NCBI GenBank assembly: GCA_016840065.1
Contig: JAEOTB010000069.1
Coordinates: 1 to 15,465, forward strand
Reading direction: 5' to 3'
From: Candidatus Hermodarchaeota archaeon
GTDB lineage: Archaea > Asgardarchaeota > Hermodarchaeia > Hermodarchaeales > Hermodarchaeaceae
Length of the DNA: 15,465 nt
Shown here: positions 1-12,065 of the stretch, one piece after another
How the letters are laid out: the number at the start of each line of letters is the position of its first letter
Numbering within the stretch: position 1 is the first letter of the stretch
Program-made: the position numbers and the translations under genes
Notes under the pieces: model-generated
Databases searched by the model: none
The model's input: only the letters and a program-made list of their open reading frames with translations
Told to the model about the DNA's origin: nothing

Positions 1-716
1 AGAATCTGGATTGGGCGCTCAGTACCTGCCTTTATCTCGACCTTCTCGATGGCAAGGGCTGAAACCGAGTGAATGTTAATGTTACCACTGTCAAAGGCCA
101 TACGACCACGACCCTTGGTCATGTCTGTTCCATCTGCAATACCTACAAGGGCTGCTTCCTTTGTCAAATCCTTGACATGAGCAGGATGAGCGTAGATAGC
201 ATGGAGAATGTGTCCCCTAATTTCAAACATCACTTCAGGGTCCTTGTATATCTCTGGTAGCAACCTGTTTAGGATAGGAATAGCCAGATAAACCGAGTGG
301 AGGTGATGTTCCTCCCTGTGAACCTGGTTCCCCAGATCATGAAGCAAAGCAGCGGTCATTACAACAAGATGAGCATCATCCTCGTCTCCCGCCTTCATCT
401 CCATAAGATTAGTCACAACACCTGCATCTAGCAGGAGCTTCAGCATCTGCAAAGCATTAGCAGAAGTTATACGGGCGTGGACGCCGCCATGATCGTTGTA
501 CCTGAGACAGCCAACAGCAATGTAATTTGCCATGTCGTGGCATGCGTTGACTTCTGCGTCTTGTTGCAGAAGTCCCCAGAGTTTCTTGGCTTTGGGGTGT
601 TTGGCGATGAGCTTTGTGATTATTTTTTCTGCTCCGATTTTCAAGTCTTCGTAGGAGGAGGGCAGTTCGAGTTCGAAGCCCCTTCCTGTGGCAATTAGTC
701 TTTTTGGTTTGGTCAT
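1..716 (-). CDS. HD-domain metal-dependent phosphohydrolase (COG3294-like), 3' end runs off the window
   Basis: Manual translation from ATG at 716, open to the window edge: MTKPKRLIATGRGFELELPSSYEDLK...RYNDHGGVHAR...AALLHDLGNQVHREEHHLHS...HAIYAH...IADGTDMTKGRGR...NIHSVSALAIEKV. It has the H...HD...D metal-binding motifs. Upstream AGGAAGGTTGA is SD-like. Absent from the ORF track because no stop lies in the window. Confidence 0.93.
   Translation of the reverse strand, partial: MTKPKRLIATGRGFELELPSSYEDLKIGAEKIITKLIAKHPKAKKLWGLLQQDAEVNACHDMANYIAVGCLRYNDHGGVHARITSANALQMLKLLLDAGVVTNLMEMKAGDEDDAHLVVMTAALLHDLGNQVHREEHHLHSVYLAIPILNRLLPEIYKDPEVMFEIRGHILHAIYAHPAHVKDLTKEAALVGIADGTDMTKGRGRMAFDSGNINIHSVSALAIEKVEIKAGTERPIQI
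588..716 (-). repeat. Copy 1 of a 129-bp diverged direct repeat (codons 1-43 of the HD gene)
   Basis: Aligns without gaps to 1687-1815 at offset 1099; 108/129 nt identical; perfect 35-bp core at 652-686. Confidence 0.97.
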
Positions 717-879
717 TTGTATCAACCTTCCTGTTTCGAGGGAGTTTATTCTCTTTGATTAGAATGTTTTGCATTTACTCCTTAGAATTGCTAGGTATCC
801 AGTGGCCTGGTGTGTAGGATTCCTGTTTGACTCGAAATTTAGTATCTCGACAAAATATCGCCCCATTCCCTAAAATCCG

Positions 880-1626
880 TTGACTATGAATCAAAGAGTT
901 TTAAAGAACCTTTCAGATAGATTTACTGCCCCAGTTAAAGAGGGAGTTCGATTGGAACGCTTTTTCCGACAACTACTCAAAGAGGAGCTTGACCACCGTG
1001 GCCGTGTCAGTAGACTAGATTCCGCGATGCTATTCTTAGCCTCCGCCACCAGTCTCGCCTTCGCCTTAATTCAAACATTATTGACAACTTCCCCTACCTT
1101 CATCTTTATCATTCCAGGTCTTCTCCTAGGCTGGTTCGCTCCCTTCTACATCGGATATATACATGGTGCAATAAAAAATAACCCTGTCAATCGAATTCGT
1201 GGCTGGACTTACCTAACGATGGGAAGCATCAGCTATGTTATATTATCGATTTTTAGTCTCTTTATAGTTCCCTTACTGGTGTTAGATGCCGCACTAGGTG
1301 TTTTCATAGCAATCGGATGTACTCTACCGTTCATAATCACGGGCATGGCAGTAACTTCATCGTTAAATCAACGGATTTCTAGAATCTGTAACCACTACGC
1401 AACTCCAGTTGAGCAGAAAGTCGTGAACTCCACGAGAATATCTTCAACGATTCTTGCCCTTGCACTTTCAATTGCAGTTTGTCTTGAATGGGAATATTTC
1501 CATCAACTTCAGGAAGGGATTCTTTTATTCCGGTTCTTTGTTTATACATATGTTCTTATCGGATTATTCTTCGAATTGTATGTTTGGTATCTGATGAGGT
1601 ATAAATCAAAAAGTGTAGTTCAGTGA
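880..1626 (+). CDS. Hypothetical integral membrane protein (~6 TM), cargo between the two HD 5' copies
   Basis: 248-aa ORF (TTG 880 or ATG 886) with several hydrophobic segments and motif-like PFYIGYIHGAI...RIRGWTYL. AT-rich: 24/60 and 20/60 GC in the lines at 1201 and 1501. Confidence 0.8.
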   Translation: MTMNQRVLKNLSDRFTAPVKEGVRLERFFRQLLKEELDHRGRVSRLDSAMLFLASATSLAFALIQTLLTTSPTFIFIIPGLLLGWFAPFYIGYIHGAIKNNPVNRIRGWTYLTMGSISYVILSIFSLFIVPLLVLDAALGVFIAIGCTLPFIITGMAVTSSLNQRISRICNHYATPVEQKVVNSTRISSTILALALSIAVCLEWEYFHQLQEGILLFRFFVYTYVLIGLFFELYVWYLMRYKSKSVVQ

Positions 1627-1651
1627 CAGACCTCTGCAGTGGGGGAGTCTG
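1627..1651 (+). terminator. Possible stem-loop directly after the 880-1626 stop codon
   Basis: CAGAC-CTCT-GCAGTG-GGGG-A-GTCTG pairs with G-T wobbles and a bulge; no strong T-tract follows. Confidence 0.3.
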
Positions 1652-1680
1652 GTTGCTTAGGCTAAATCAGGGTTCTCTTC

Positions 1681-1815
1681 TCAGACGGCTTCGGGGTGTT
1701 TGGCTAGGAGTTTGGTGATGGCTTTTTCTGCTGCTATCTTTAAGTCTTCATAGGAGGAGGGCAGTTCGAGTTCGAAGCCCCTTCCGGTCTGAATCAATCT
1801 CTTTGGTTTAGTCAT
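1681..1815 (-). pseudogene. Truncated 5' stub of the HD phosphohydrolase gene (44 aa), copy 2 of the repeat
   Basis: ATG at 1815 gives MTKPKRLIQTGRGFELELPSSYEDLKIAAEKAITKLLAKHPEAV*, 38/43 aa identical to the HD N-terminus. Homology ends abruptly after codon 43 and a TGA follows one codon later. Confidence 0.92.
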
Positions 1816-1820
1816 GAAAT

Positions 1821-1853
1821 TCACCAATGGGAATTTGGTTTCATGCTTATAAT
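1821..1853 (-). promoter_or_regulatory. TATA-like box and archaeal SD upstream of the HD stub
   Basis: On the minus strand ATTATAAG (1853-1846) lies about 30 nt upstream of the ATG and GGTGA (1825-1821) 5 nt upstream. Confidence 0.6.
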
Positions 1854-1915
1854 TGAATATTGTGTTTTTGCCATTGAAACTTATTCTATCAGGAGTACCT
1901 TAGAATCTTGTGGGG

Positions 1916-2072
1916 TCACTCAAGCAGATTGTCAACCAGACACCTCGCACAAAGACCACGGTGCCCCTCAAACTGCCTCTGCTCCTCTCCATGCGTTACC
2001 TTATCACATACAAGTACTGAGGTGGCTCACAGCACTCCCTGCACTTCTCTTTGATATACCATGTAAACACAC
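1916..2072 (-). pseudogene. Possible degraded small Cys/His-rich (zinc-finger-like) gene
   Basis: GGTGA SD (2085-2081) precedes GTG at 2072. Fragments in three frames read MCLHGISK / EKCRECCEPPQYL / VCDKVTHGEEQRQFEGHRGLCARCLVDNLLE*; two single-base repairs give a 52-aa protein. Confidence 0.3.
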
Positions 2073-2134
2073 AAAACTACTCACCCACCCCCACAAAATC
2101 TCAAGAAATCTTTTAGCTACATAAGATTTTGATA

Positions 2135-3451
2135 CTAGACGCTAGAATCTTCGTATTCTTTACCTGAAATTATCGCCTCATCAATTTCCGCTATTAGCTG
2201 CTTCTTTGAGAGGCTGCTCTTAAGACGGTTCACTATTGTACGACGGGCAACATCTAGAATCTTTCTCGCGAGCTGCTCCAGATCATCACCCTTCTTCCTT
2301 TTAACCTGACTTCCATGAACATAAGCGCTTCTCACTCCATAACTACGACTAACCGTATCATAGATGGACAATGCCTCAGAGCTATTTTGAGCTAACAATC
2401 TACTCACCCGCTGCCCGAGTCTATGACGCAATTCTAACCGCTCACTAGAACCCAGAAGCAAAGCTTCAAGAGCCATAATCGCAAAAAGAAATCGCTCCTC
2501 AAGCGAAGGGGAATCCAAGAGTGCCTTATTGAGCCGCTCTAAAGCAATGGTAAGCTCATCAATCGTTGGGTTAACACAAACACGAGGAGTTATTTTATCC
2601 TCCAGCTCAGAGAAGAAAATCTTCAACTTGTCTCGTTCTTGAATTGACAGTTTATACTCATACGCTGGTGACCGTACCACATTTGGCCAACTAGAGGAAC
2701 CCCCTTCGAAAGGGGATTCACAAGAATAAAATGTCACTACCGCTTTGACTGACCCAACTTTGAAAAGTCTAAGTATTTGAGGTACAGCCTGAACGATGGG
2801 AAAGATTTCTGATTGATTTCGTGCAAGACGGTGTATTTCAACAACTGCTGAAGGTTCTCTATCATATTGTAAACGAGGCGGTCCATGTGTATACCTTGAA
2901 AGGCGTTTCAAATCCATTGGTTGTTTTCTCACAAAGTCGTTGGGTCGTGGCTTTCGTATAATAAAACCATCGTCTAAGACGATGTCATCGTCTTCCATCC
3001 ATACACCCTTAATCAAAACCCTGACATGCCATTGAGCTTTTTCGTTTTTGAGAAATCCTAAGAAGTAATCGATGATATCCATTAGATTCTTGGTTCCATT
3101 TTGAAGCCAGTCACGAGCAATAACCCATAGTAGCTGATCAATACGCATCTTTGTAGCAAATTTATTGAGACTATACTTTTCCTGAATTATCTTTGAAGAT
3201 GCAAGATATTGTTCTGTGGACCTTATGTCGGATTCTAAGGTTTTACGTAACCTCATAGAGTCAATAATGTGTCTTGACTCTGTATCAGATATCGGGCGGA
3301 ATGTTGATCTTCCATCCTTGTATTCGAACTGGTCGACTCCTTCGATATCGATTTCCTCGGTTGCGATAAATGCTGTAGGCTGCCTTTCAATGATTTCAAC
3401 AAGCAGCCGCGCAAGCTTAGCTAATCTTTTCCTTACCTGGCTTTTATCCAA
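2135..3451 (-). CDS. ApeA-like HEPN domain protein (putative RNase, defence/abortive-infection type)
   Basis: 438 aa. The C-terminal ERFLFAIMALEALL...ELRHRLGQRVSRLL...YGVRSAYVHG matches the Apea/HEPN pattern with an intact Rx4H catalytic motif (nt 2315-2332). TTG start; AT-rich. Confidence 0.85.
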   Translation of the reverse strand: MDKSQVRKRLAKLARLLVEIIERQPTAFIATEEIDIEGVDQFEYKDGRSTFRPISDTESRHIIDSMRLRKTLESDIRSTEQYLASSKIIQEKYSLNKFATKMRIDQLLWVIARDWLQNGTKNLMDIIDYFLGFLKNEKAQWHVRVLIKGVWMEDDDIVLDDGFIIRKPRPNDFVRKQPMDLKRLSRYTHGPPRLQYDREPSAVVEIHRLARNQSEIFPIVQAVPQILRLFKVGSVKAVVTFYSCESPFEGGSSSWPNVVRSPAYEYKLSIQERDKLKIFFSELEDKITPRVCVNPTIDELTIALERLNKALLDSPSLEERFLFAIMALEALLLGSSERLELRHRLGQRVSRLLAQNSSEALSIYDTVSRSYGVRSAYVHGSQVKRKKGDDLEQLARKILDVARRTIVNRLKSSLSKKQLIAEIDEAIISGKEYEDSSV

Positions 3452-3779
3452 AACCGAATCAATCCCTTTGTGATTAATCTTCTAAGGGCAATATTCAACA
3501 ATAAATGTCTATTGACAGTCAGCCGTATAGGTTCCAGTTTTAGAGCGTTACAAAGACGGTGCTTCTCGCTAAGGATAAAATACAGAGTGCTGTACGTCAT
3601 CTTCGTCTCAGTCCATCCCTAGCTGGCTCTGCAATACCGGCACTTCTCGTTCTCGGATACTGTTTCGTTTAAAGAAGAGATAAGTGATCTAAATCAAACT
3701 ATAAAGACGATACTCGAAACAAGAACCAACTAAATAGGCACTTGAATCTACCGATAATAGGGCGCAGGGATGTGAAAGG

Positions 3780-4103
3780 TTATGACTCGTCAGGATCGTC
3801 TTCAGGTGGTGGATCGATGTAGAGACCTTGTTTTCGGAGTGCTTCGAGCATTGCTGGCATGGCTTCGAATTGTCGGAGCTGGACTTCCTTCTCGAATCGT
3901 TGCTGTTTCTCTTCGGCTTCGGCTTCTTCGAGCTCACTCTTCGAGTAGGAGTACAGGAGTAAACAACAAAACGTTGATAGCCCAGAGATTATCCACAAGA
4001 TGTTACCAGCTCCGAAGAACGTACCGGTGAAGAAAGTCAATGCTACTCCGCTTCCCTGGGCAGCATGCAAGAGAAATCGGTGGAATTTTCTTTCTTTGGT
4101 CAC
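3780..4103 (-). CDS. Small 2-TM membrane protein with acidic coiled-coil tail
   Basis: 107 aa; GTG start preceded by AGGAGTGG; two hydrophobic segments, then SELEEAEAEEKQQRFEKEVQ and an acidic C-terminus. Confidence 0.75.
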   Translation of the reverse strand: MTKERKFHRFLLHAAQGSGVALTFFTGTFFGAGNILWIISGLSTFCCLLLYSYSKSELEEAEAEEKQQRFEKEVQLRQFEAMPAMLEALRKQGLYIDPPPEDDPDES

Positions 4104-4168
4104 AGAACCACTCCTAACCCTAGCTGGGAACCATTCCTCTTAAATCTAGCATAATTCAAGCATACCCC

Positions 4169-4184
4169 TGCTCCTTAATTTAGG
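4169..4184 (+). repeat. 16-bp direct repeat, left copy (TGCTCCTTAATTTAGG)
   Basis: 15/16 identical to 5403-5418; the two copies flank the 4262-5326 gene. Confidence 0.7.
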
Positions 4185-4204
4185 CTAAAAAATTTGGACG
4201 AGTT

Positions 4205-4257
4205 CGGCGACCTTGGAAGCGGCGACCTTGCCTCTCCATGGTGGAAGTCTAGGCAAG
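4205..4257 (-). terminator. Hairpin plus short tandem repeat just after the stop of the 354-aa gene
   Basis: CTTGCCT (4227-4233) pairs with AGGCAAG (4251-4257), with inner TCCA/TGGA. CGGCGACCTTG occurs twice (4205-4215, 4220-4230). A T6 run follows further downstream on the minus strand. Confidence 0.4.
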
Positions 4258-4261
4258 ATTA

Positions 4262-5326
4262 TTAATCATAAAGCGATGGAATCAAGTTCTCTCGCTCAAC
4301 AATTTTTTTTAGAAGATTGTCAAGTAATGGCACTAACTTCTTGAGTGCTTCAAGAAAATCCGTTCGCACGGTTTTTCCTTCTGATGTAATAAGCCTCGCA
4401 CCATGAAAGCGCTGCCCTTTTATTGTTATAATGGTGACAAGAAAAATACCACATTCATCGACATAAAGGTCCAGATGCAGTTTATTCCCTAAATACGACC
4501 GCTCAGATTCTTCCTCTACTAGTGTGACTTGGCTTTCTAGAGTTCCATTAGAGAGTTTATCGAGTCCCATTTTGTATGCTACTACGATTCCTCTTGCGTC
4601 GCGTAATAATTCCGCTTCTGCATCTAAGAGCCTATTCCAATCACCTTTTGATTCACATTCTAACAATTCAGCTATCACATGATGAAGGGTTGATTTTTGC
4701 GTACTCTGTTTTATCTCTTGTTTGACTAGATAGGTGAATCGGGCTAGAAATAGCCGTCCGAATGTTTTCTGCCATTGTTTCCTGGCCGTCCACCCAAAGG
4801 CAATCATGCCAAGGAATGTAGTGAGGATCAGCATAACTCGGAGGATTAGGGGTAACCAACCAGGAATGAGATTCGCAATAAGAAGGACGGTGAAGCTTAC
4901 GAAGCCCACTACAAAGTTGAAGTAGCTTTCACGATCTCGTTGCATTATTGCATAGCGAAACACATCACTTCTAAACGGTTTCTCGCCAACAAGGGGTTGG
5001 TCTTTATCCTGCGATTTTAGCCTGTTCTTCCAATATTTCTCAATCGGCTGCCAATAAGCGAGGAGTGGAGTGAGGGCGCCTGTTCCGAGAAGGGTAATTG
5101 CAGGAAGGAGTATCGCCGTAACTAGCGTGGGATCGTAGGTAGCCGGGTCGAATCCAAGAGGTACAAACCAGGTAACTAGCAGTGGGCTAAGCAAAGGATT
5201 CGCTTGTAAGAGGGGAACGAGGGAACTGCCGAGGGTTATCAGAAGAAAAATAATGGAGCTCCCAAGAAATAGATACCGAAAGGGCGTGGGCGCCTTTGAG
5301 TCAAGGATAACGGTTGGCAGAGACAT
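4262..5326 (-). CDS. Hypothetical membrane protein (4-5 N-terminal TMs, soluble C-terminal domain)
   Basis: The ORF track gives 4262-5347, but ATG at 5326 (MSLPTVILD...) is preceded by GAGGGAGTG and is the better start (354 aa). No recognised family. Confidence 0.8.
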   Translation of the reverse strand: MSLPTVILDSKAPTPFRYLFLGSSIIFLLITLGSSLVPLLQANPLLSPLLVTWFVPLGFDPATYDPTLVTAILLPAITLLGTGALTPLLAYWQPIEKYWKNRLKSQDKDQPLVGEKPFRSDVFRYAIMQRDRESYFNFVVGFVSFTVLLIANLIPGWLPLILRVMLILTTFLGMIAFGWTARKQWQKTFGRLFLARFTYLVKQEIKQSTQKSTLHHVIAELLECESKGDWNRLLDAEAELLRDARGIVVAYKMGLDKLSNGTLESQVTLVEEESERSYLGNKLHLDLYVDECGIFLVTIITIKGQRFHGARLITSEGKTVRTDFLEALKKLVPLLDNLLKKIVERENLIPSLYD

Positions 5327-5371
5327 TGACACTCCCTCAGTATACAAAATTAGAAGCCACTTGAGGCTAAA

Positions 5372-5385
5372 AAACCTTAAGGTTT
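5372..5385. promoter_or_regulatory. Perfect 14-bp palindrome AAACCTTAAGGTTT upstream of the 354-aa gene
   Basis: Self-complementary, 46-59 nt upstream of ATG 5326; candidate operator or promoter element. Confidence 0.45.
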
Positions 5386-5402
5386 CAAGAAAAGAGCAGG
5401 GG

Positions 5403-5418
5403 TGCTCCTTAATTCAGG
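5403..5418 (+). repeat. 16-bp direct repeat, right copy (TGCTCCTTAATTCAGG)
   Basis: 15/16 identical to 4169-4184; overlaps the small hairpin GAGCA-GGGG-TGCTC (5394-5407). Confidence 0.7.
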
Positions 5419-5624
5419 TTTTAGAGAACGGATTCTACATTTCCTGGGCTCTCACCAGTTCCGACGCCAACTACCACCACTACACTGGAGTTTACATAGT
5501 ATCTGTCTTCGATTCAACGCCTTGGATTATTCTAGCCGCTGAGGTAATACTGGTTGTTATGATAGTAACGACACTGGTGGTTGTAGTTTACCGCTGGAGG
5601 CGACGACGTAGGAACATGTCTTGA
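5403..5624 (+). pseudogene. Probable 3' remnant of a C-terminally anchored surface protein gene
   Basis: Reads ...ENGFYISWALTSSDANYHHYTGVYIVSVFDSTPWIILAAEVILVVMIVTTLVVVVYRWRRRRRNMS*: a TM helix plus basic stop-transfer cluster. No credible start; upstream the frame runs through another gene's promoter and coding sequence. Confidence 0.55.
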
Positions 5625-6556
5625 AGTCTAAGGTAGACCTGAGAAGGTACGCTTATCTCCCCTTGATTAATAATCGAGATGATGAGTTTTTGCTCCTTGA
5701 ATCTTTTTGCGTGGAATTCAGTATGCGCCATCACTCTGTAGAGTATCTCGTAGGCCCTCGGATCTTTTGCCCCAATCCTTAGAAGTTCTGTGATAAGGGG
5801 GTGAATCATCTGGATTAGGTGGGGGTAGGCTTTGTCTACTTTCTCGATTGCGGCTGGTCCCTCAATCTTGAGAAGTGCGACTGCAGTCATGGTTCGTGCC
5901 ATCTCGTTTTCGTTCTCTCTCAACCTCTGGTCTAGAATGGGTACGGCGCGTGGGTCGCTGATTACTCCGAGAGCTTGGGTGCAGCAACCCTGAACGTAGT
6001 CGGGTAGTCCTCCAGAAGGGGATGCTCCCCTGAGTAATGCTTCAAGGGCTGTGGAACCTCCTATCTCTCCAAGGCACATACAAGCGTGGCCGCGTGTCGT
6101 CTCACTTGGGTGTTTTTCAATGACTTCGAGGAGATGTGGGATTGACCTTGTGCCATCCGTTTCTACCATGAGGCGGAGGGCTATAGCGTGGTATTGAAAT
6201 CTGGGTTTTTGCCCGTCTGTGTGTATGTGTAGAAGTCCTTCAAAGCCCCGGTCTCCCATCCTGCGCAAAACCTCCACAATAGCCTCTTTATCCTCGGCTC
6301 TCGGGGCTTGCAACCATGCGTGAATGAAGAGAAGACTCTCGCCGACACTGCCTTCAGTGCCCTCCGCCACGGGTACGCCTTTGTCTAGATGGGTCATCAG
6401 GTCTTCATGGGTGTACCGCTCCGCTATTTCGTCAAAAATCGCCTTTAGGGCTTCAAACTTTTCCATATCAGAGTTCAAGATGTCAGAGAAGGCGGCTTCT
6501 AACCGTTCCATCGTCTCTATTAACTCGATTTTTCCCAAATCATTCTTCCCGCTCAT
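5588..6556 (-). CDS. HEAT/PBS-lyase-like repeat protein
   Basis: 322 aa with tandem HEAT-like units: TTRGHACMCLGEIGGSTALEALL, YVQGCCTQALGVISDPRAVPILDQRL, MARTMTAVALLKIEG. AAGGATAG lies upstream of the ATG. Confidence 0.85.
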   Translation of the reverse strand: MSGKNDLGKIELIETMERLEAAFSDILNSDMEKFEALKAIFDEIAERYTHEDLMTHLDKGVPVAEGTEGSVGESLLFIHAWLQAPRAEDKEAIVEVLRRMGDRGFEGLLHIHTDGQKPRFQYHAIALRLMVETDGTRSIPHLLEVIEKHPSETTRGHACMCLGEIGGSTALEALLRGASPSGGLPDYVQGCCTQALGVISDPRAVPILDQRLRENENEMARTMTAVALLKIEGPAAIEKVDKAYPHLIQMIHPLITELLRIGAKDPRAYEILYRVMAHTEFHAKRFKEQKLIISIINQGEISVPSQVYLRLQDMFLRRRLQR

Positions 6557-6607
6557 ATACTATCCTTACTTTCATACTCTAAAAAAACTTCTCGTAAAAA
6601 CACCATG

Positions 6608-6624
6608 GTCTTTATAGTGAAGAC
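6608..6624 (+). promoter_or_regulatory. TATA box (TTTATA 6611-6616) within an inverted repeat in the divergent HEAT/oxidoreductase intergenic region
   Basis: GTCTT-TATAGTG-AAGAC, about 40 nt upstream of the oxidoreductase start. Confidence 0.45.
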
Positions 6625-6656
6625 AGTACAACTTATTCTGATGTTTGGAGCAGTGA

Positions 6657-8141
6657 TTGACGATGTCTTCAACCTCTTTCAATGTGCGTCGAGTGAGGCG
6701 TCAGCTAGAACATCTCCTCGGTAAGGAGAATGTCTCCGACGCAGAAATCGATAGGATTTGTTATTCACGTGATACTTGGCCACTTCGTCTTATGCAGCTA
6801 GGTCGTCTTGTCACCAAACCACAGCCTGACCTTATTGTATGGCCTACTAGGGTGGAGCATATCCAGCAGGTTCTTCGAGTCGCCAACGCAGAACACATCC
6901 CAGTTACACCAGTTTCTGGAGGCGGTGGCGTCTGTGGTGGTGCGCTCCCAACCCAGGGCGGCATTATCCTCGACTTGAAGAAGATGAATAGGATATGTGG
7001 TTTGGACGAGGAGTCATACACAGTCACAGTGGAGACCGGAGTTTTAGGTTATGAGCTAGAACAGTATCTGTCCGCTCGTGGGTATACGACAGGACATGCC
7101 CCTTCTTCGATTTTCAGCTCTGCTGTGGGCGGCTTTGCGGCAGCCCGCTCAGCTGGGGTGCTAAGCTCAAAATATGGAAAATTCGAGGATATCGTGGTAA
7201 GCCTGGAAGTGGTTCTACCCAATGGTGAAGTGCTCCGCACCAAGACAGTTCCACGCAGCTCCATGGGTCCAGACTTGAAACAACTCTTCATTGGGTCAGA
7301 AGGCACTCTAGGAATCATCACCGAACTAACCCTGCGTATCTGTCCAGTACCCGAATCCACAAAGTTCGCCTCATTCCTCTTCCCAGACCTGCACACAGGA
7401 ATGGAGGCGGTCAAACAAATCTTCCGCAGAGACCTCCGACCAGCCCTCATACGCCTCTATGACGAGAACGAAACCCGCTTCGTCTTGGGAAGGTTCATGT
7501 CTCCCCCTGAGGGAGCGAGTGTACTGAACTTAACCTATAGCGCTACAAAGGAACTTGTGAGTTTAGAACGGCGAACGGTGACAAGAATCTGTGAAGCGGC
7601 CGAAGCCAAATCGCTGGGTCCGAAGCCCTCAAAGCACTGGTGGGATAACCGGTTCGACCTCTACTACCCCTCCAGCATCAACTTAGGTCCAGGCATGCTC
7701 TATGATGTCCTCGACGTTGCCGCCAGTTATGCAAACCTGGAAAAGATGTACTGGAAAATGCGTGAAGCAATAGAGAAGCTGGGAGTCAGTACCATGAGCC
7801 ACTTCAGCCACTTCTACCCCGATGGCGGAAACATCTACGTGATATTCATAGGTCATGCAAGCTCCCCAGAGAAGGCAGAGGCGAAGTACAGCCAGGTCTG
7901 GAAAGTCGGTCTAGACGCTGCTCATCGCGCCGGTGGCACTCTCAGCCATCAACACGGCGTGGGGCTCCTAAAAGCTCCGTGGATGCCCATTGAACACGGT
8001 CCTTCAGGATTTGCCTTAATTGAAGCCATCAAACAACACTTGGACCCCAACAACATTCTCAATCCAGGAAAACTAGGTCTTGGCTCAAATGGCAGCCACT
8101 CACACGAATCCCCTACAGCAAATGGAGGTGTTAATCAATGA
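6657..8141 (+). CDS. FAD-binding oxidoreductase, VAO/PCMH fold, alkyl-dihydroxyacetonephosphate synthase (AGPS)/YgcU-like subfamily
   Basis: 494 aa (TTG 6657 or ATG 6663). Motifs PVSGGGGVCGG, TTGHAPSS, KYGKFED, PRSSMGPDLKQLFIGSEGTLGIITE, PALIRLYDE, HFSHFYPDGGNIY, GGTLSHQHGVG, LDPNNILNPGK. Confidence 0.92.
   Translation: MTMSSTSFNVRRVRRQLEHLLGKENVSDAEIDRICYSRDTWPLRLMQLGRLVTKPQPDLIVWPTRVEHIQQVLRVANAEHIPVTPVSGGGGVCGGALPTQGGIILDLKKMNRICGLDEESYTVTVETGVLGYELEQYLSARGYTTGHAPSSIFSSAVGGFAAARSAGVLSSKYGKFEDIVVSLEVVLPNGEVLRTKTVPRSSMGPDLKQLFIGSEGTLGIITELTLRICPVPESTKFASFLFPDLHTGMEAVKQIFRRDLRPALIRLYDENETRFVLGRFMSPPEGASVLNLTYSATKELVSLERRTVTRICEAAEAKSLGPKPSKHWWDNRFDLYYPSSINLGPGMLYDVLDVAASYANLEKMYWKMREAIEKLGVSTMSHFSHFYPDGGNIYVIFIGHASSPEKAEAKYSQVWKVGLDAAHRAGGTLSHQHGVGLLKAPWMPIEHGPSGFALIEAIKQHLDPNNILNPGKLGLGSNGSHSHESPTANGGVNQ
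8124..8130 (+). promoter_or_regulatory. Shine-Dalgarno GGAGGTG for the Fe-S subunit
   Basis: 7 nt upstream of ATG 8138, which overlaps the upstream stop (ATGA). Confidence 0.8.
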
Positions 8142-9316
8142 GTGGTCCTCCTCCCCCCAGCTCTACTGATTCCCTTGATCAATACGCAAAGGTCAACAGG
8201 CTCTGCAGCCTCTGCAGCCGCATGTGCCGCCATGCCTGCCCCACCCACATCACTACACGTTCCGACGCCTGCAGCCCCGTTGGACGGGCACTAACCATCG
8301 AATTATACCGGGGCAATAAAACCGCCTTGACCGAAGCCCCCGTGAAACGCCTCTACCAATGTACGCTCTGCGGTGCCTGCAAGTCTTGGTGCAAGCCCAG
8401 CCACGAATTACCCCGAATCATCGAACTGGCCAGAGAACGAGTAATTCAAGAACATCGAACACCAGCAGGACTCTTGGATTTCGACCAAATAGTAACTCAG
8501 CATCACAATGTCTATGGCGAACCCCATAGAGAACGCTTTAAAGCCCTCACACTAGCAACCAATCAACCCCCCTCCAATGATACTGTCCTCTATTTCGTAG
8601 GATGCACCACAGCTTATCGCCATCCCGAAATTGCTACCGCGGCAATCCAGGTCCTCAACCACCTTGGAATCAACACTCACCTACTCCAAAAGGAAGTCTG
8701 TTGCGGCTCACCATTGATCCGTGCTGGTTTTACTGAAACCGCTCAAAACCTAGCAAAACAAAATGTGGAAGCCATCACCCAAAGCGGCATAAGAACAATT
8801 ATCACCACTTGTCCCGGATGCGCCCGCGCCCTCAAACTTGACTATCCCAAACTCAACGTTCCTCTCCCAAAAAGCGTACGAGTACTCCACATAACTGAAT
8901 TCCTCACCAGGTCTCGTCAAATGAAAAGGCTAAAACAACACGAAGCTCCACCCCCAGTGGCTGAAATCATACCTGTGGTCTATCATGACCCCTGTCATCT
9001 AGGGAGAGAATTAGGGGTCTACGAGCCACCCAGAAAACTCCTCCGGCTCATACCTGGAATCCACCTTGTAGAATTCCAAAATAACCGAGACCACGCCGAC
9101 TGCTGCGGAGCAGGTGGAGCACTACCTAAAACCTTCCCCGACCTCGCAGCACAAATCGCCAAACGTCGACTCAAAGACGCATTTCAAACCACTGCTGGTA
9201 TGATAACCAGCTCTTGCCCCAACTGCAAACAACACTTCTTACGGCACTCTACCAAAACAGGTCCACTCCTCCCCGTATATGACCTCCTAGAGCTTCTCGC
9301 CGGTGTCCTGAAGTAG
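8138..9316 (+). CDS. (Fe-S)-binding protein: 4Fe-4S dicluster plus two CCG domains (GlpC/GlcF/HdrD-like)
   Basis: 392 aa; CSLCSRMCRHACP and CTLCGACKSWC; CCG1 GC...CCG...CPGC; CCG2 HDPC...CCG...CPNC. Translationally coupled to the flavoprotein. Confidence 0.93.
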   Translation: MSGPPPPSSTDSLDQYAKVNRLCSLCSRMCRHACPTHITTRSDACSPVGRALTIELYRGNKTALTEAPVKRLYQCTLCGACKSWCKPSHELPRIIELARERVIQEHRTPAGLLDFDQIVTQHHNVYGEPHRERFKALTLATNQPPSNDTVLYFVGCTTAYRHPEIATAAIQVLNHLGINTHLLQKEVCCGSPLIRAGFTETAQNLAKQNVEAITQSGIRTIITTCPGCARALKLDYPKLNVPLPKSVRVLHITEFLTRSRQMKRLKQHEAPPPVAEIIPVVYHDPCHLGRELGVYEPPRKLLRLIPGIHLVEFQNNRDHADCCGAGGALPKTFPDLAAQIAKRRLKDAFQTTAGMITSSCPNCKQHFLRHSTKTGPLLPVYDLLELLAGVLK

Positions 9317-9391
9317 CAATGGGCGCAACAGGTATCCAGCCCTTTGCTTGAAAAGGTAAGGCTTATTAGAAAAGACGCTGAGAGATAATCC

Positions 9392-9410
9392 TCTCCTTCT
9401 TCGAAGGAGA
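9392..9410. promoter_or_regulatory. Perfect 8-bp stem hairpin TCTCCTTC-TTC-GAAGGAGA
   Basis: Intergenic, just upstream of the SD GGGAGG (9417-9422) of the next gene. Confidence 0.4.
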
Positions 9411-9434
9411 ACAACCGGGAGGAAAAGAAATCAT

Positions 9435-9926
9435 ATGTCAAGAGACGTTGCGTCACGAGTACTAAGTATACTCGCTGGAGTTTTCTACATCATCAGCTTC
9501 ATAATAGGTATTGTCATCTTCGGGATACGTGCTATCATCATTCTCTTCGCCATTCTAATAGCCATCGCTCTATACACTGGCTTAGGAGGCGGAGAAATGA
9601 CAGATGAAGACCGCGCACTGATATGGTCAATGATCTGGGGCTGGGTCATAATCCCCTTCGCCGCAATGGCATTCTGGCTCATCATAGGCATCCTTGTCCT
9701 AGTATGGCAGAGCGACACCTACTCACGCCGCCCCCACATCATCATCCTCGGCATCCTCGGCGTCGTATTCACCGCCTTAATAGGTGTAGTGATGTTCTTT
9801 GACCCCTTCTTCGCCGCTTTAACCGGCTTCTGGATAGCCGCCCTCGCTGCCTTGATACTAGCCCTTCTTGCAGGCATCCTCGCTTTAATCGCAGGAGCCA
9901 TCGCAGTACCCAAAGGCGGAATATAA
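9435..9926 (+). CDS. Hypothetical integral membrane protein (4-5 TM)
   Basis: 163 aa, almost entirely hydrophobic; SD upstream; ends AGILALIAGAIAVPKGGI. Confidence 0.85.
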   Translation: MSRDVASRVLSILAGVFYIISFIIGIVIFGIRAIIILFAILIAIALYTGLGGGEMTDEDRALIWSMIWGWVIIPFAAMAFWLIIGILVLVWQSDTYSRRPHIIILGILGVVFTALIGVVMFFDPFFAALTGFWIAALAALILALLAGILALIAGAIAVPKGGI

Positions 9927-10050
9927 ACTACTCCAAAGGACCTTCAGCCAACGGAACCAAATTAAAACGCACGCCTAGGTGAAAGAAGGCTAGAAACAAC
10001 CCTGAGCCAAGACGCTATTCTCATCTAGCTACAAAAATCTGTGAAGACTT

Positions 10051-10087
10051 GGAAAAAAGGGGGAACTGGCTGAGACAGGCTCAGCCA
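10051..10087 (-). terminator. Intrinsic terminator-like hairpin and T-tract after the hydrolase gene
   Basis: Minus strand TGGCTGAG-CCTGT-CTCAGCCA (10087-10067) followed by GTTCCCCCTTTTTTCC, 9 nt after the stop at 10097. Confidence 0.65.
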
Positions 10088-10096
10088 ACAACTCGC

Positions 10097-10669
10097 TCAG
10101 AACCAGGGAGACCACCAAATGATTATCGCGAAGATAATCAGGACTATCCCGTTAATGATAAGCCAAGGTCGCTCAAGCGGCTCAGGAACCTTCGTGATAT
10201 TGCCCGGCGCAGAAACTAGCGACCGTTCAATATAAGCGATACCCTCTTTGGGGCTCTTCGAGAAGCGGTTGAGAATCGACTTTGTACTAGGAATCAAGTC
10301 AGTAAATAAGTGGCATGCAACACCAGTAAAGAATATTGAAATGAAGTACCGGTCGGTAGGCCACCACCACGTTATACTAGGCCAAAAAATCGGCCAGAGG
10401 AATCTTAGCGGGAGCCAGATAGCAGCGACGAAGATAAGCGGGAGAACGAAGCTGTGGGAAATCCAGGCGCGGTGACCCATGAAGGGTTTCCAGTCGTGGT
10501 CGAAGTCTGGGAACATTGCGCCCAGCCATCCAACGAAGATAAACCAGATTCCCACGAAATCAGGTATTATTGGTACAGGTAGAGAATACATTGCTTCTAC
10601 GTATTTCATTACTAACCAGATGCCAGCGAATGATGCAGCAGCGAGAACCATGTGATCGAATCTGTTCAT
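10097..10669 (-). CDS. Membrane-bound metal-dependent hydrolase (YdjM/DUF457-like)
   Basis: 190 aa with the family signature M...H, GAMFPDFD, GHRAWISHS, GVACHLFTD between TM helices; GGTGA SD upstream. Confidence 0.85.
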   Translation of the reverse strand: MNRFDHMVLAAASFAGIWLVMKYVEAMYSLPVPIIPDFVGIWFIFVGWLGAMFPDFDHDWKPFMGHRAWISHSFVLPLIFVAAIWLPLRFLWPIFWPSITWWWPTDRYFISIFFTGVACHLFTDLIPSTKSILNRFSKSPKEGIAYIERSLVSAPGNITKVPEPLERPWLIINGIVLIIFAIIIWWSPWF

Positions 10670-10739
10670 GGTAGAAATTCACCTAGCCCTTCTTGCTATC
10701 TTTTCACTTAAAAATGAATTAGTTTTACCGTCTTTACAT

Positions 10740-12065
10740 TCAAGACGGCTTTCGGCTGCGAAGGATGAGGGGTATGACTGCCATGCTACCTGCAATGCTA
10801 ATGACGGCGCAGAGGATGAGGGGGAGGGCGGCGGCTTGATTGGGGTTAGCGGTGGCAGCAAGAATCACCGCGTATGCGTAGCCTCCGATGATGGGGGCGA
10901 TGGCTCTGGCGGCGCTTCCGCTCATACCGAGGAGGCCCATTACCAGTCCCCGTTCTTTGGGGGGTGAGGCTTGAGCGGCTAGGGCAGCTGATGAGGGGAG
11001 TGCCATTGCTCCTCCTATGCCCATCAGTGCACCTATCATGAAGAGGTCTAGGGCGGTTGTGGACAGTATGGCTGTTAGGGCGGCTACTGCGGTTACAACT
11101 CCACTCAAGATGAGGAGCACGTCGTGTCCGATGCTGTCTGATAGCCGACCGAAGATTAACTGGCTCAGCGCATTACTGGAGGCAAAGAAGAGGAAGAAGA
11201 TGCCCAAGTCCAGGGGTGAGAAGGCGAATGTGCGGGGGTCTGTGGCGTATACTGCAAACATTGGTTCAGCAACAGCGATTGAGAAGATTCTCGTGAAACG
11301 AATTACCAAAGCCACAGCTAGTAACGTGCCACCCACTCCGACGACAATGCGATAACGATGAAGGGTTGCCCCAAGCTTTCCCCAGAGCGATTGCGCTTCT
11401 ACCTTCGATGCTGTATCCTCCCTAATCGTCTTGCCTTCGATGTGTTTGCGTGGTTCACGAATAATAATGAATGAAAAGACGAAGGTGAGAGCAGCTAAAC
11501 CCGCGCAGATGAAGAAAGGAACCCGAATACCAAGATATTGAGCGAGAATGCCCCCAATGGTGGGGCCGAAAATCATTCCAGTTGTACGACCTGCCAACAA
11601 TGTGCCGAGGGCGGTACCTCTCTTTTCAGGCGGTGCAAGGTCCGACACCAACGCGTCAGAAGAAGGATAGAGGCCTGCCGTGAATAATCCCTCTGCAGCT
11701 CGCGTAATGAAAAGGAGTAGAATCGAGTTCGCTAGCCCAAAAGCGACAAGGGCCACACTAGAACCTACAAGGGAGAGAAGAATCACAGGCTTACGCCCGA
11801 TACGATCCGAAAGAGCTCCCATTGGTCCAGCAGCAATGAAGGTGCAAAGCGAGAAAGTAGCAACAAGAAGCCCATACTCTAAGGCTCCGCCGCCAAATAT
11901 GGTCAGATAGAAGGGAAGGATTGGCATAACAGCTCCATAACCCAGTAAGAGGAAGGCTTGAGCGATGGCGAGGAGTACAACCTGACCCATGTATTTTGAA
12001 TCAGACGCTGTTGGCGACGGGGTTTGAGTCTGGGGATTCAAGATAAGTTCAACACAAACCAGCAC
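10740..12065 (-). CDS. MFS transporter, DHA1/TetA-like drug:H+ antiporter family
   Basis: About 12 TMs; motif A GALSDRIGRK, motif B RAAEG, motif C GMIFGPTIGG, second-half GRLSDSIG. The true start may be TTG 12041 (MNPQTQ...), about 28 nt after a CTTAAA box. Confidence 0.93.
   Translation of the reverse strand: MLVCVELILNPQTQTPSPTASDSKYMGQVVLLAIAQAFLLLGYGAVMPILPFYLTIFGGGALEYGLLVATFSLCTFIAAGPMGALSDRIGRKPVILLSLVGSSVALVAFGLANSILLLFITRAAEGLFTAGLYPSSDALVSDLAPPEKRGTALGTLLAGRTTGMIFGPTIGGILAQYLGIRVPFFICAGLAALTFVFSFIIIREPRKHIEGKTIREDTASKVEAQSLWGKLGATLHRYRIVVGVGGTLLAVALVIRFTRIFSIAVAEPMFAVYATDPRTFAFSPLDLGIFFLFFASSNALSQLIFGRLSDSIGHDVLLILSGVVTAVAALTAILSTTALDLFMIGALMGIGGAMALPSSAALAAQASPPKERGLVMGLLGMSGSAARAIAPIIGGYAYAVILAATANPNQAAALPLILCAVISIAGSMAVIPLILRSRKPS

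Follow-up and report, generated by a model that had tools for sequence, protein, structure and literature searches.

A displaced 5' end of an HD phosphohydrolase gene in a Hermodarchaeota genome, a candidate scar of recombination between diverged alleles

We analyzed a 15,465-nt stretch of DNA (the window) that makes up the entire contig C51 of a metagenome-assembled genome (MAG) of Candidatus Hermodarchaeota, an Asgard archaeon (G000). The first 43 codons of an HD-domain phosphohydrolase gene occur twice in it, once as the beginning of the intact gene and once as an isolated 5' end (the stub), and a single gene for a membrane protein lies between the two copies. The sequence evidence is consistent with the stub being the scar of a one-sided homologous plus illegitimate recombination event between diverged alleles of a hypervariable locus, a reading that in our judgement has about an even chance of being correct. 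It draws on an empty site in one congener (G003), a TnpB element at the same point in another (G001), the lack of a recombinase, an insert that is single-copy, and an intact allele that is internally coherent. In addition, the same layout recurs at three other loci of the MAG, with no sequence shared at the ends of homology.

Under this reading, two diverged versions of the locus, from related and probably co-occurring Hermodarchaeota, would recombine. Ordinary homologous pairing within a core gene of the flank would secure one side of the exchange, and the other would be joined illegitimately, with one partner cut inside the HD gene after codon 43-57 and the second partner cut just past the membrane-protein gene. 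One HD gene would stay whole and the other would survive as a 5' end alone, stranded in a 5.85-kb island, with no need for a dedicated recombinase. From the products of the event we infer both this mechanism and a derivation of the stub from another lineage. Note that an identical product would result if a small circle integrated by a Campbell-type single crossover.

The MAG comprises 2.59 Mb in 131 contigs, with 84% completeness, 5% contamination and a genomic G+C content (GC) of 0.47. It was compared with three congeners (G001, G002 and G003) and with 15 genomes of the sister genus.

Two diverged copies of one gene start

The intact HD gene lies on the minus strand at 3..716 (Pfam HD, PF01966), where codons 1-238 are present and the contig end cuts the remaining ~62 codons; the missing tail has no match anywhere in the MAG. 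Full-length relatives are 299 amino acids (aa) long and 87-91% identical, the closest being P0006 (91%). Repeat copy A (588..716, minus strand) represents codons 1-43 of this gene. The stub (1681..1815, minus strand) is composed of copy B (1687-1815), which represents codons 1-43 of a second HD allele, followed by one codon (Val) and TGA. The two copies form a direct repeat of 129 nt without gaps, identical at 108/129 positions and with a spacing of 1099 nt. This is the sole significant repeat within positions 500-6800, and copy B is the only second HD-like stretch in the MAG. No comparable short (44-aa) stub protein was found among 5.8e9 sequences. A preliminary description of the window, made from its letters alone, had reported the coordinates of this repeat, its 21 mismatches in 129 nt and its 10 synonymous and five non-synonymous codon differences, and every one of these values was reproduced exactly.

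The pattern of change between the copies is that of a gene under selection. Fifteen codons differ, 10 of them synonymously and 5 non-synonymously, and the method of Nei and Gojobori gives a non-synonymous divergence (dN) of 0.080, a synonymous divergence (dS) of 0.69 and a dN/dS ratio of 0.115. True orthologues of the same HD segment range from 0.06 to 0.20, which includes the value for copies A and B. When 21 changes were placed randomly, a mean of 13.8 amino acid changes resulted, compared with the 5 observed, and none of the trials (0/20,000) produced so few. A duplication that was born identical and then had one copy drifting neutrally is expected to show a dN/dS of at least 0.5. The ratio of 0.115 at a dS of 0.69 therefore suggests that both copies were working gene starts during nearly all of their divergence. 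Judging from these substitutions, the two copies must have diverged while functional as gene starts, either in different lineages or as two distinct genes, and by the same estimate the stub is young relative to the divergence of A and B. Recent tandem or target-site duplication is contradicted by the same ratio and randomizations, and the DNA between the copies is unique. The earlier proposal that both copies evolved under protein-level selection and do not represent a recent tandem duplication is thus upheld.

Homology is not confined to the coding segment. The promoter and leader region preceding copy A (717..786, minus strand) is a diverged homologue of the promoter that is conserved in G003 and G001; aligned locally with the HD intergenic region of G003, it scores 42 (P<2e-4 against random genome segments). 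The corresponding region preceding the stub (1816..1885, minus strand) is likewise homologous to the HD promoter of G003, with a score of 35 (P=6e-4 against the same kind of background). The two upstream regions have no detectable similarity to each other. Since both are homologous to the HD promoter of G003, homology extends beyond the ATG, and each copy thus appears to consist of a promoter, homologous over about 60-70 nt, together with 43 codons of an HD allele. Possession of its own homologous promoter by each copy is as expected for fragments of whole alleles. The intact gene had been described previously as carrying a replacement promoter region; the diverged homologue of the HD promoter at 717-786 speaks against that description.

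A 35-nt stretch that spans codons 11-21/22 (GRGFELELPSS) is identical in both copies (652..686 = 1751..1785), and the copies share no exact word longer than this. An identical run of this length has a chance probability of about 0.01-0.05, and the stretch can fold as a DNA hairpin (z -3.1). Of its 35 nucleotides, 20 are invariant also in G001 and G003, both of which are devoid of the membrane-gene and stub insert, so constraint seems to explain at least part of the identity. The stretch may be a crossover or conversion tract, or it may merely be constrained. Homology between copies A and B flanks it on both sides, with codons 1-10 (30 nt) and the promoter on one side and codons 22-43 (64 nt) on the other.

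The intact gene does not have the appearance of a hybrid. P0277, a relative from another metagenome, shares residues A9 and L25 with copy A and residues QQ50-51 and H60 with the body of the intact gene, and its translated upstream region is of the ordinary conserved promoter type. Copy B carries Q9, as do G001 and G003, and K42E at a lysine that is otherwise invariant. Since A9 and L25 occur together with QQ50-51 and H60 in P0277, copy A and the body attached to it look like one natural allele. The comparison of diagnostic residues gave no evidence of a hybrid formed at the 35-nt core or at codon 43. In the short segment of codons 1-10, copy B matches G001 at 27/30 positions and copy A at 22/30; in codons 22-43, also a short segment, both copies match it at 53/66. 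The idea that a 1099-bp unit with an orthologous 5' end had arrived and rebuilt the HD gene is not supported here, given that the N-terminal residues of copy A go with those of its own gene body in P0277.

The island and the same locus in relatives

The gene between the copies (886..1626, plus strand; alternative TTG start at 880) is predicted to encode a multi-pass membrane protein of 246 aa from a family without a name. It is the single open reading frame (ORF) between copies A and B, lies on the strand opposite to the HD gene and has a GC of about 0.40-0.44, compared with 0.47 for the genome, in agreement with the single AT-rich, oppositely oriented membrane-protein gene reported initially. 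The protein matches no Pfam family and has no homologue in 40 relatives, congeners included. A full HMMER search retrieved 204 distant relatives, of which the best shows 38% identity and none bears a Pfam name; a status as ORFan, suggested by a word-indexed search that returned only the protein itself, was rejected on these grounds. The family comprises long forms (~290-300 aa) and short forms (~215-246 aa) and shows a conserved segment, GW..P.Y.GY..G...R.RGW.Y. A 3' truncation was considered because the best relatives measure about 290-300 aa, and was rejected because several family members share the end of this protein; the gene looks intact. The stretch 717-2134 is single-copy in the MAG, and neither the stub nor the membrane-protein gene was found with an HD gene elsewhere.

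Comparison with congeners places the membrane-protein gene and the stub within a larger insertion. In G003 the HD gene and an operon for an FAD-linked oxidase and a CCG/Fe-S subunit are divergent neighbors separated by 107 nt, which is the empty arrangement. The same operon is present in the window on the plus strand (6625..9316, from Pfam matches and leader alignment), with a conserved leader (6625-6662), the FAD-linked oxidase gene (6663-8141) and the gene for the CCG/Fe-S subunit (8138-9316), and is collinear with G003 8404-11714 and G001 1818-2314. In the window, homology on the HD-proximal side stops near 776-786 and homology on the oxidase-proximal side begins at 6625, leaving ~5.85 kb in between. 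Given the empty arrangement in G003, positions 776-6624 therefore appear to be a genome-specific low-GC island. It lies between two ancestral divergent promoters (787..6624) and harbors the membrane-protein gene, the stub and three further genes. Beyond the two promoter segments, the regions flanking the copies show no significant homology to the oxidase-proximal half of the ancestral spacer (P 0.05-0.9).

In G001 the same intergenic spot is occupied by a frameshifted TnpB/IS605 element, located between the divergent HD and FAD-oxidase promoters (L018, G001:C403, 338-1603), with two ORFs that carry OrfB_IS605, HTH and Cas12f1-like TNB domains. Its insertion point coincides with the start point of the island in the window. 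The ~5.85 kb of the window is, on this comparison, an insertion at the same point as the element of G001, and the 1099-nt unit is only part of it. The preliminary description had suggested a search of relatives for an empty allele and for different cargo genes at the same codon; the empty allele exists in G003, and in G001 a different insert occupies the same intergenic spot. The discrete 1099-bp unit that it postulated is not supported by the comparison, being single-copy, non-recurring and part of the 5.85-kb island, with homology on both sides of the identical core.

The other genes of the island are all on the minus strand. The first (2135-3451) encodes a 438-aa HEPN-like protein in which an Rx4H motif (RSAYVH) lies close to the C-terminus; the look-alikes retrieved with a language model are bacterial proteins without names, of which some have HEPN domains of the ApeA type, and no match was found in Pfam, NCBIfam or PADLOC. 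It is followed by genes for a 361-aa membrane protein (4262-5347) and a HEAT-repeat protein (5588-6556). The GC of the island is mostly 0.38-0.46, compared with 0.49-0.54 in the flanking core genes. The island has no DNA matches or orthologues in the three congeners, and its spacers hold no gene fragments, tRNA, Rfam families or further repeats.

The number of HD genes in relatives bears on another possible history, in which the HD gene had a complete partner ~1 kb away, either a paralogue or an acquired allele, until a deletion left the first 43 codons of one of them. Such a history accounts for the low dN/dS and for the promoter of the stub, and the K42E change at an invariant site, together with a possible decayed continuation of the stub, resembles pseudogene decay. 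Yet none of the congeners has a pair of HD genes at the locus: in G003 and in G001 a single one directly faces the FAD oxidase, and the second full-length tandem paralogue in relatives that would have undermined the initial proposal was not found in the three congeners. Furthermore, at all four loci with the layout described below, it is the terminal segment pointing away from the insert that survives, a regularity not predicted by random decay. We therefore regard a decayed second gene as quite improbable. The HD gene itself is present in 3/3 congeners and 0/15 genomes of the sister genus, and beyond the genus its best-matching relatives (68-72% identity) are labelled as Thermoproteota-type, with other Asgard matches at 40-49%, which suggests that it was horizontally acquired.

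In the closest congener, G002, HD codons 86-238 show 97% aa and 85% nt identity, and codons 1-85 as well as the FAD-oxidase region are missing. The genome-wide distance of G002 to the MAG studied here corresponds to 83-85% nt identity, and the divergence between copies A and B (84% nt identity) equals that distance. The end of G000:C49 and positions 1-127 of G002:C54 overlap by 127 nt with 100% identity, contig end to contig start. Because this exact overlap joins contig ends of both bins, the MAG and G002 appear to come from the same assembly. Both bins probably derive from a single k=127 assembly, and neighboring contigs may be split between them. The matching distances and the apparent common assembly together indicate that a suitable donor was probably present in the same habitat.

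A mixed origin of the sample also raises the prospect of an assembly chimera, two co-occurring populations having been joined artificially at 1686/1687. The MAG stems from a mixed community that seemingly includes G002 in the same assembly, precisely HD codons 1-85 and the FAD-oxidase region are missing from G002, and contigs break within the HD gene in three MAGs: at codons 86-88 in G001 and G002, and at codon 238 in the window. The breaks correspond to window positions 1 and 452-461, the start of G001:C403 and the end of G002:C59. No repeat accounts for them; they are possibly what is expected where co-occurring population variants diverge. Several observations nonetheless make a chimera very unlikely. 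The junction lies outside the longest word shared by the copies, has no homologue and offers no path in a k-mer graph. At each end, the contig has separate orthologues in G002, at 83-85%. Finally, the layout is found at four independent loci on four contigs, two of which have matching stubs or empty sites in other MAGs.

Recurrence of the layout in the genome

A self-comparison of the MAG and a scan for terminal gene fragments revealed at least three further loci that combine a gene-end stub, one or two inserted genes and an intact gene. The genes concerned encode a DUF362 protein, myo-inositol-1-phosphate synthase and a GNAT acetyltransferase. An orphaned gene end in direct orientation, beside an intact allele and with divergence of the functional type, is found at these three loci as well as at the HD locus.

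At the DUF362 locus (G000:C49 13357-15249) the promoter and the first 56 codons are copied 0.9 kb upstream, with an antisense alpha/beta-hydrolase gene in between. The stub shows 79% nt identity, a dN/dS of 0.13 and a dS of 0.89, and a stop is located right at the homology boundary. Contig C49 also carries duplicated pieces of a luciferase-like monooxygenase and a methyltransferase gene.

At the myo-inositol-1-phosphate synthase locus (G000:C65 1712-1945 and 6628-6916) it is the last ~78 codons that are copied, 4.7 kb downstream, and two genes, a 992-aa ORF and a prenyltransferase-like gene, occupy the space between the copies. The copies are identical at 61/71 positions including the stop, with a dN of 0.078 and saturated dS. 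The site is empty in G002, and G001 has the prenyltransferase-like gene without the 992-aa ORF. The stub has radical changes at invariant sites. It keeps C-terminal residues of the congeners that the intact gene has changed, and therefore looks like the displaced native end. A third fragment, of 45 nt and G002-like, directly follows the stop codon.

The GNAT locus (G000:C108 3379-3549 and 7094-7264) has a 3' stub behind the gene for a 1045-aa CBM56-like protein, with a dN/dS of 0.28. A 3'-end stub next to a pyridoxal-phosphate (PLP) enzyme gene is common to three congeners. The cargo differs between genomes, being the 1045-aa CBM56-like gene here and a 430-aa ORF in G003. The G002 site has only the stub, without a full GNAT gene, so it appears that stubs can outlive species splits.

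Two other repeats were recorded in the MAG. A 165-nt direct repeat, 90% identical (G000:C78 104047-104211 and 117518-117682), brackets 13.3 kb with genes for a TrmB-AAA ATPase, a PD-(D/E)XK nuclease and several large unknown ORFs, a segment that looks like a defence-type island. The 3' end of a LAGLIDADG gene was seen as a repeat alone.

The boundaries of homology at the four stub loci have no motif in common, an argument against the action of one site-specific recombinase. The stubs measure 129, 168, about 171 and about 234 nt, and the longest exact runs inside the repeats are 35, 21, 12 and 23 nt, the 12-nt run being that of the GNAT locus. The common layout, together with these lengths and runs and with the different cargo of congeners at the GNAT site, could point to a systematic, recombinase-independent cassette route, in which circles carrying one or two genes and 130-240 nt of a neighboring gene end integrate by single crossover on short, diverged homology. 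But ordinary homologous recombination needs more than a 12-nt exact run, neither a circle nor a donor nor a shared end structure was seen, and the product cannot be distinguished from that of recombination between diverged alleles. We consider this route an improbable explanation of the HD locus. The broader proposition, that Hermodarchaeota gain genes by a regular route of this kind, one or two genes at a time with 130-240 nt of a neighbor-gene end, promoter or stop included, is doubtful on the present sequence comparisons. If true, every event would leave a stub, and the 2.6-Mb MAG would record at least four of them, the HD locus included.

Mechanism, known counterparts and meaning

The marks of mobile elements were sought at several levels. 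No recombinase or transposase domain occurs in any ORF of the window, and PF00589 has no match (0) in the 84%-complete MAG; the same family was matched in all 14 control genomes. The preliminary description, which noted no recombinase in the unit or the window, was right in this respect. The window contains no tRNA, Rfam family or terminal inverted repeats, and none of the marks of integron cassettes, insertion sequences (IS) or transposons was found in it (attC, IntI, transposase, terminal inverted repeats, short target duplication). Element or attachment-site (att) boundaries do not recur: the MAG has one copy of the unit, 40 relatives lack it, and the protein search retrieved no second stub. 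One-sided homology of att type is lacking if the core is the 35-nt run and would be present if the crossover was instead at codon 43/44. An empty target site, a hallmark shared with site-specific elements, is present in G003.

These results bear directly on the alternative that the unit is a remnant or non-autonomous site-specific integrative element that targeted the 5' end of the HD gene and brought a replacement promoter and 5' end, its integrase being lost or acting in trans. The topology is exactly that of elements that restore a 5' end (PMC4482086). An identical, hairpin-forming core inside the repeat, an empty site in G003 and a cargo without close relatives all agree with such an origin. 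Against it stand the lack of a recombinase in unit, window and MAG, and homology that continues beyond the core in either direction (for 30 nt and the promoter, and for 64 nt), unlike one-sided att sites. Moreover, 20 nt of the core are invariant in congeners without the insert. The N-terminus of copy A belongs with its own gene body in P0277, and the upstream sequence of that relative is the ordinary conserved promoter. Finally, the unit does not recur and the other stub loci have no common core motif. On balance an element of this type is unlikely. Of the two origins that the preliminary description offered, homology-facilitated gene capture comes close to the explanation we favor, and the minimal non-autonomous element is unlikely.

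Recombination between diverged alleles is in turn confronted with several difficulties. The illegitimate junction is localized only to 1627-1686, the zone in which the membrane-protein gene and the stub converge, and no microhomology was identified there. This zone possibly holds decayed HD codons 44-57 with several indels: it shows no significant homology, only collinear blocks of marginal support (P 0.02-0.03) that would continue the stub as decayed HD to about 1628. Among the genomes compared, none was found with the membrane-protein gene beside an HD gene, as a donor would have, and none with the island beside an HD allele resembling copy B; all of these genomes are themselves MAGs. The identical, hairpin-forming core also fits a crossover site, and a random illegitimate process does not obviously predict that all four stubs measure about 130-240 nt.

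Known systems resemble the HD locus to different degrees. Campbell-type insertion-duplication, in which a DNA circle bearing part of a gene integrates by a single crossover, has been documented chiefly with suicide vectors in the laboratory. As in the HD locus, one truncated and one complete copy flank the insert, and the length of the repeat equals that of the cloned homology. Unlike the laboratory case, insertion of this type at the HD locus would call for a natural source of 1.1-kb circles and for recombination at 16% divergence on a 35-nt exact match. In fungal mitochondria, mobile endonuclease ORFs are accompanied by a duplicated C-terminus of the host gene; there too, the inserted gene comes with a foreign end of the adjacent gene and the native end persists as a downstream remnant, but the HD unit has no endonuclease gene and its duplicated end is the 5' and not the 3' one.

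Elements of the SXT/R391 group insert in the 5' end of prfC and supply a new 5' end. Similarly, islands with dusA-specific integrases enter the gene at its 5' end and provide it with a new one, together with a promoter (PMC4482086). The HD locus shares with dusA and prfC elements the placement of cargo between a displaced 5' stub, which keeps a promoter of its own, and a full-length gene, as well as differences between copies that are mostly silent. It differs from them in that neither the HD unit nor the MAG has a recombinase of the tyrosine or serine type, and in that the unit spans only 1.1 kb with one gene, shows HD homology on both sides of the identical core, and does not recur.

The closest counterpart may be homology-facilitated illegitimate recombination, or 'displacement', described for Rhs and type VI secretion system (T6SS) effector-immunity loci and illustrated by Rhs C-terminal displacement and by orphan modules in Vibrio T6SS effector-immunity arrays (PMC5361080). 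As in those loci, an incoming diverged allele and one or more neighbor genes appear fixed beside the resident gene, a gene end is orphaned in the same orientation without an integrase, and the process seems repeatable at one locus that is highly variable among close relatives. Unlike in those loci, where the 3' toxin tip is orphaned, it is the 5' end and promoter that are orphaned here, in an HD hydrolase of housekeeping type. In addition, the HD locus has no evident selective logic such as retained immunity genes, and we infer its mechanism.

Taken alone, the HD locus reveals no new mechanism. It is best classed as a displaced gene-end scar, a kind of feature already known, and its interest comes mainly from the frequency of this type of scar in the MAG. 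As a recombination scar, the locus would be clean and datable, and would suggest that an Asgard archaeon swaps pieces of variable loci with relatives that are about 15% diverged. Such exchanges could add genes without an integrase, and gene-end stubs could then serve as markers with which to count and date gene gain in Asgard genomes, whose mobile elements have been little characterized.

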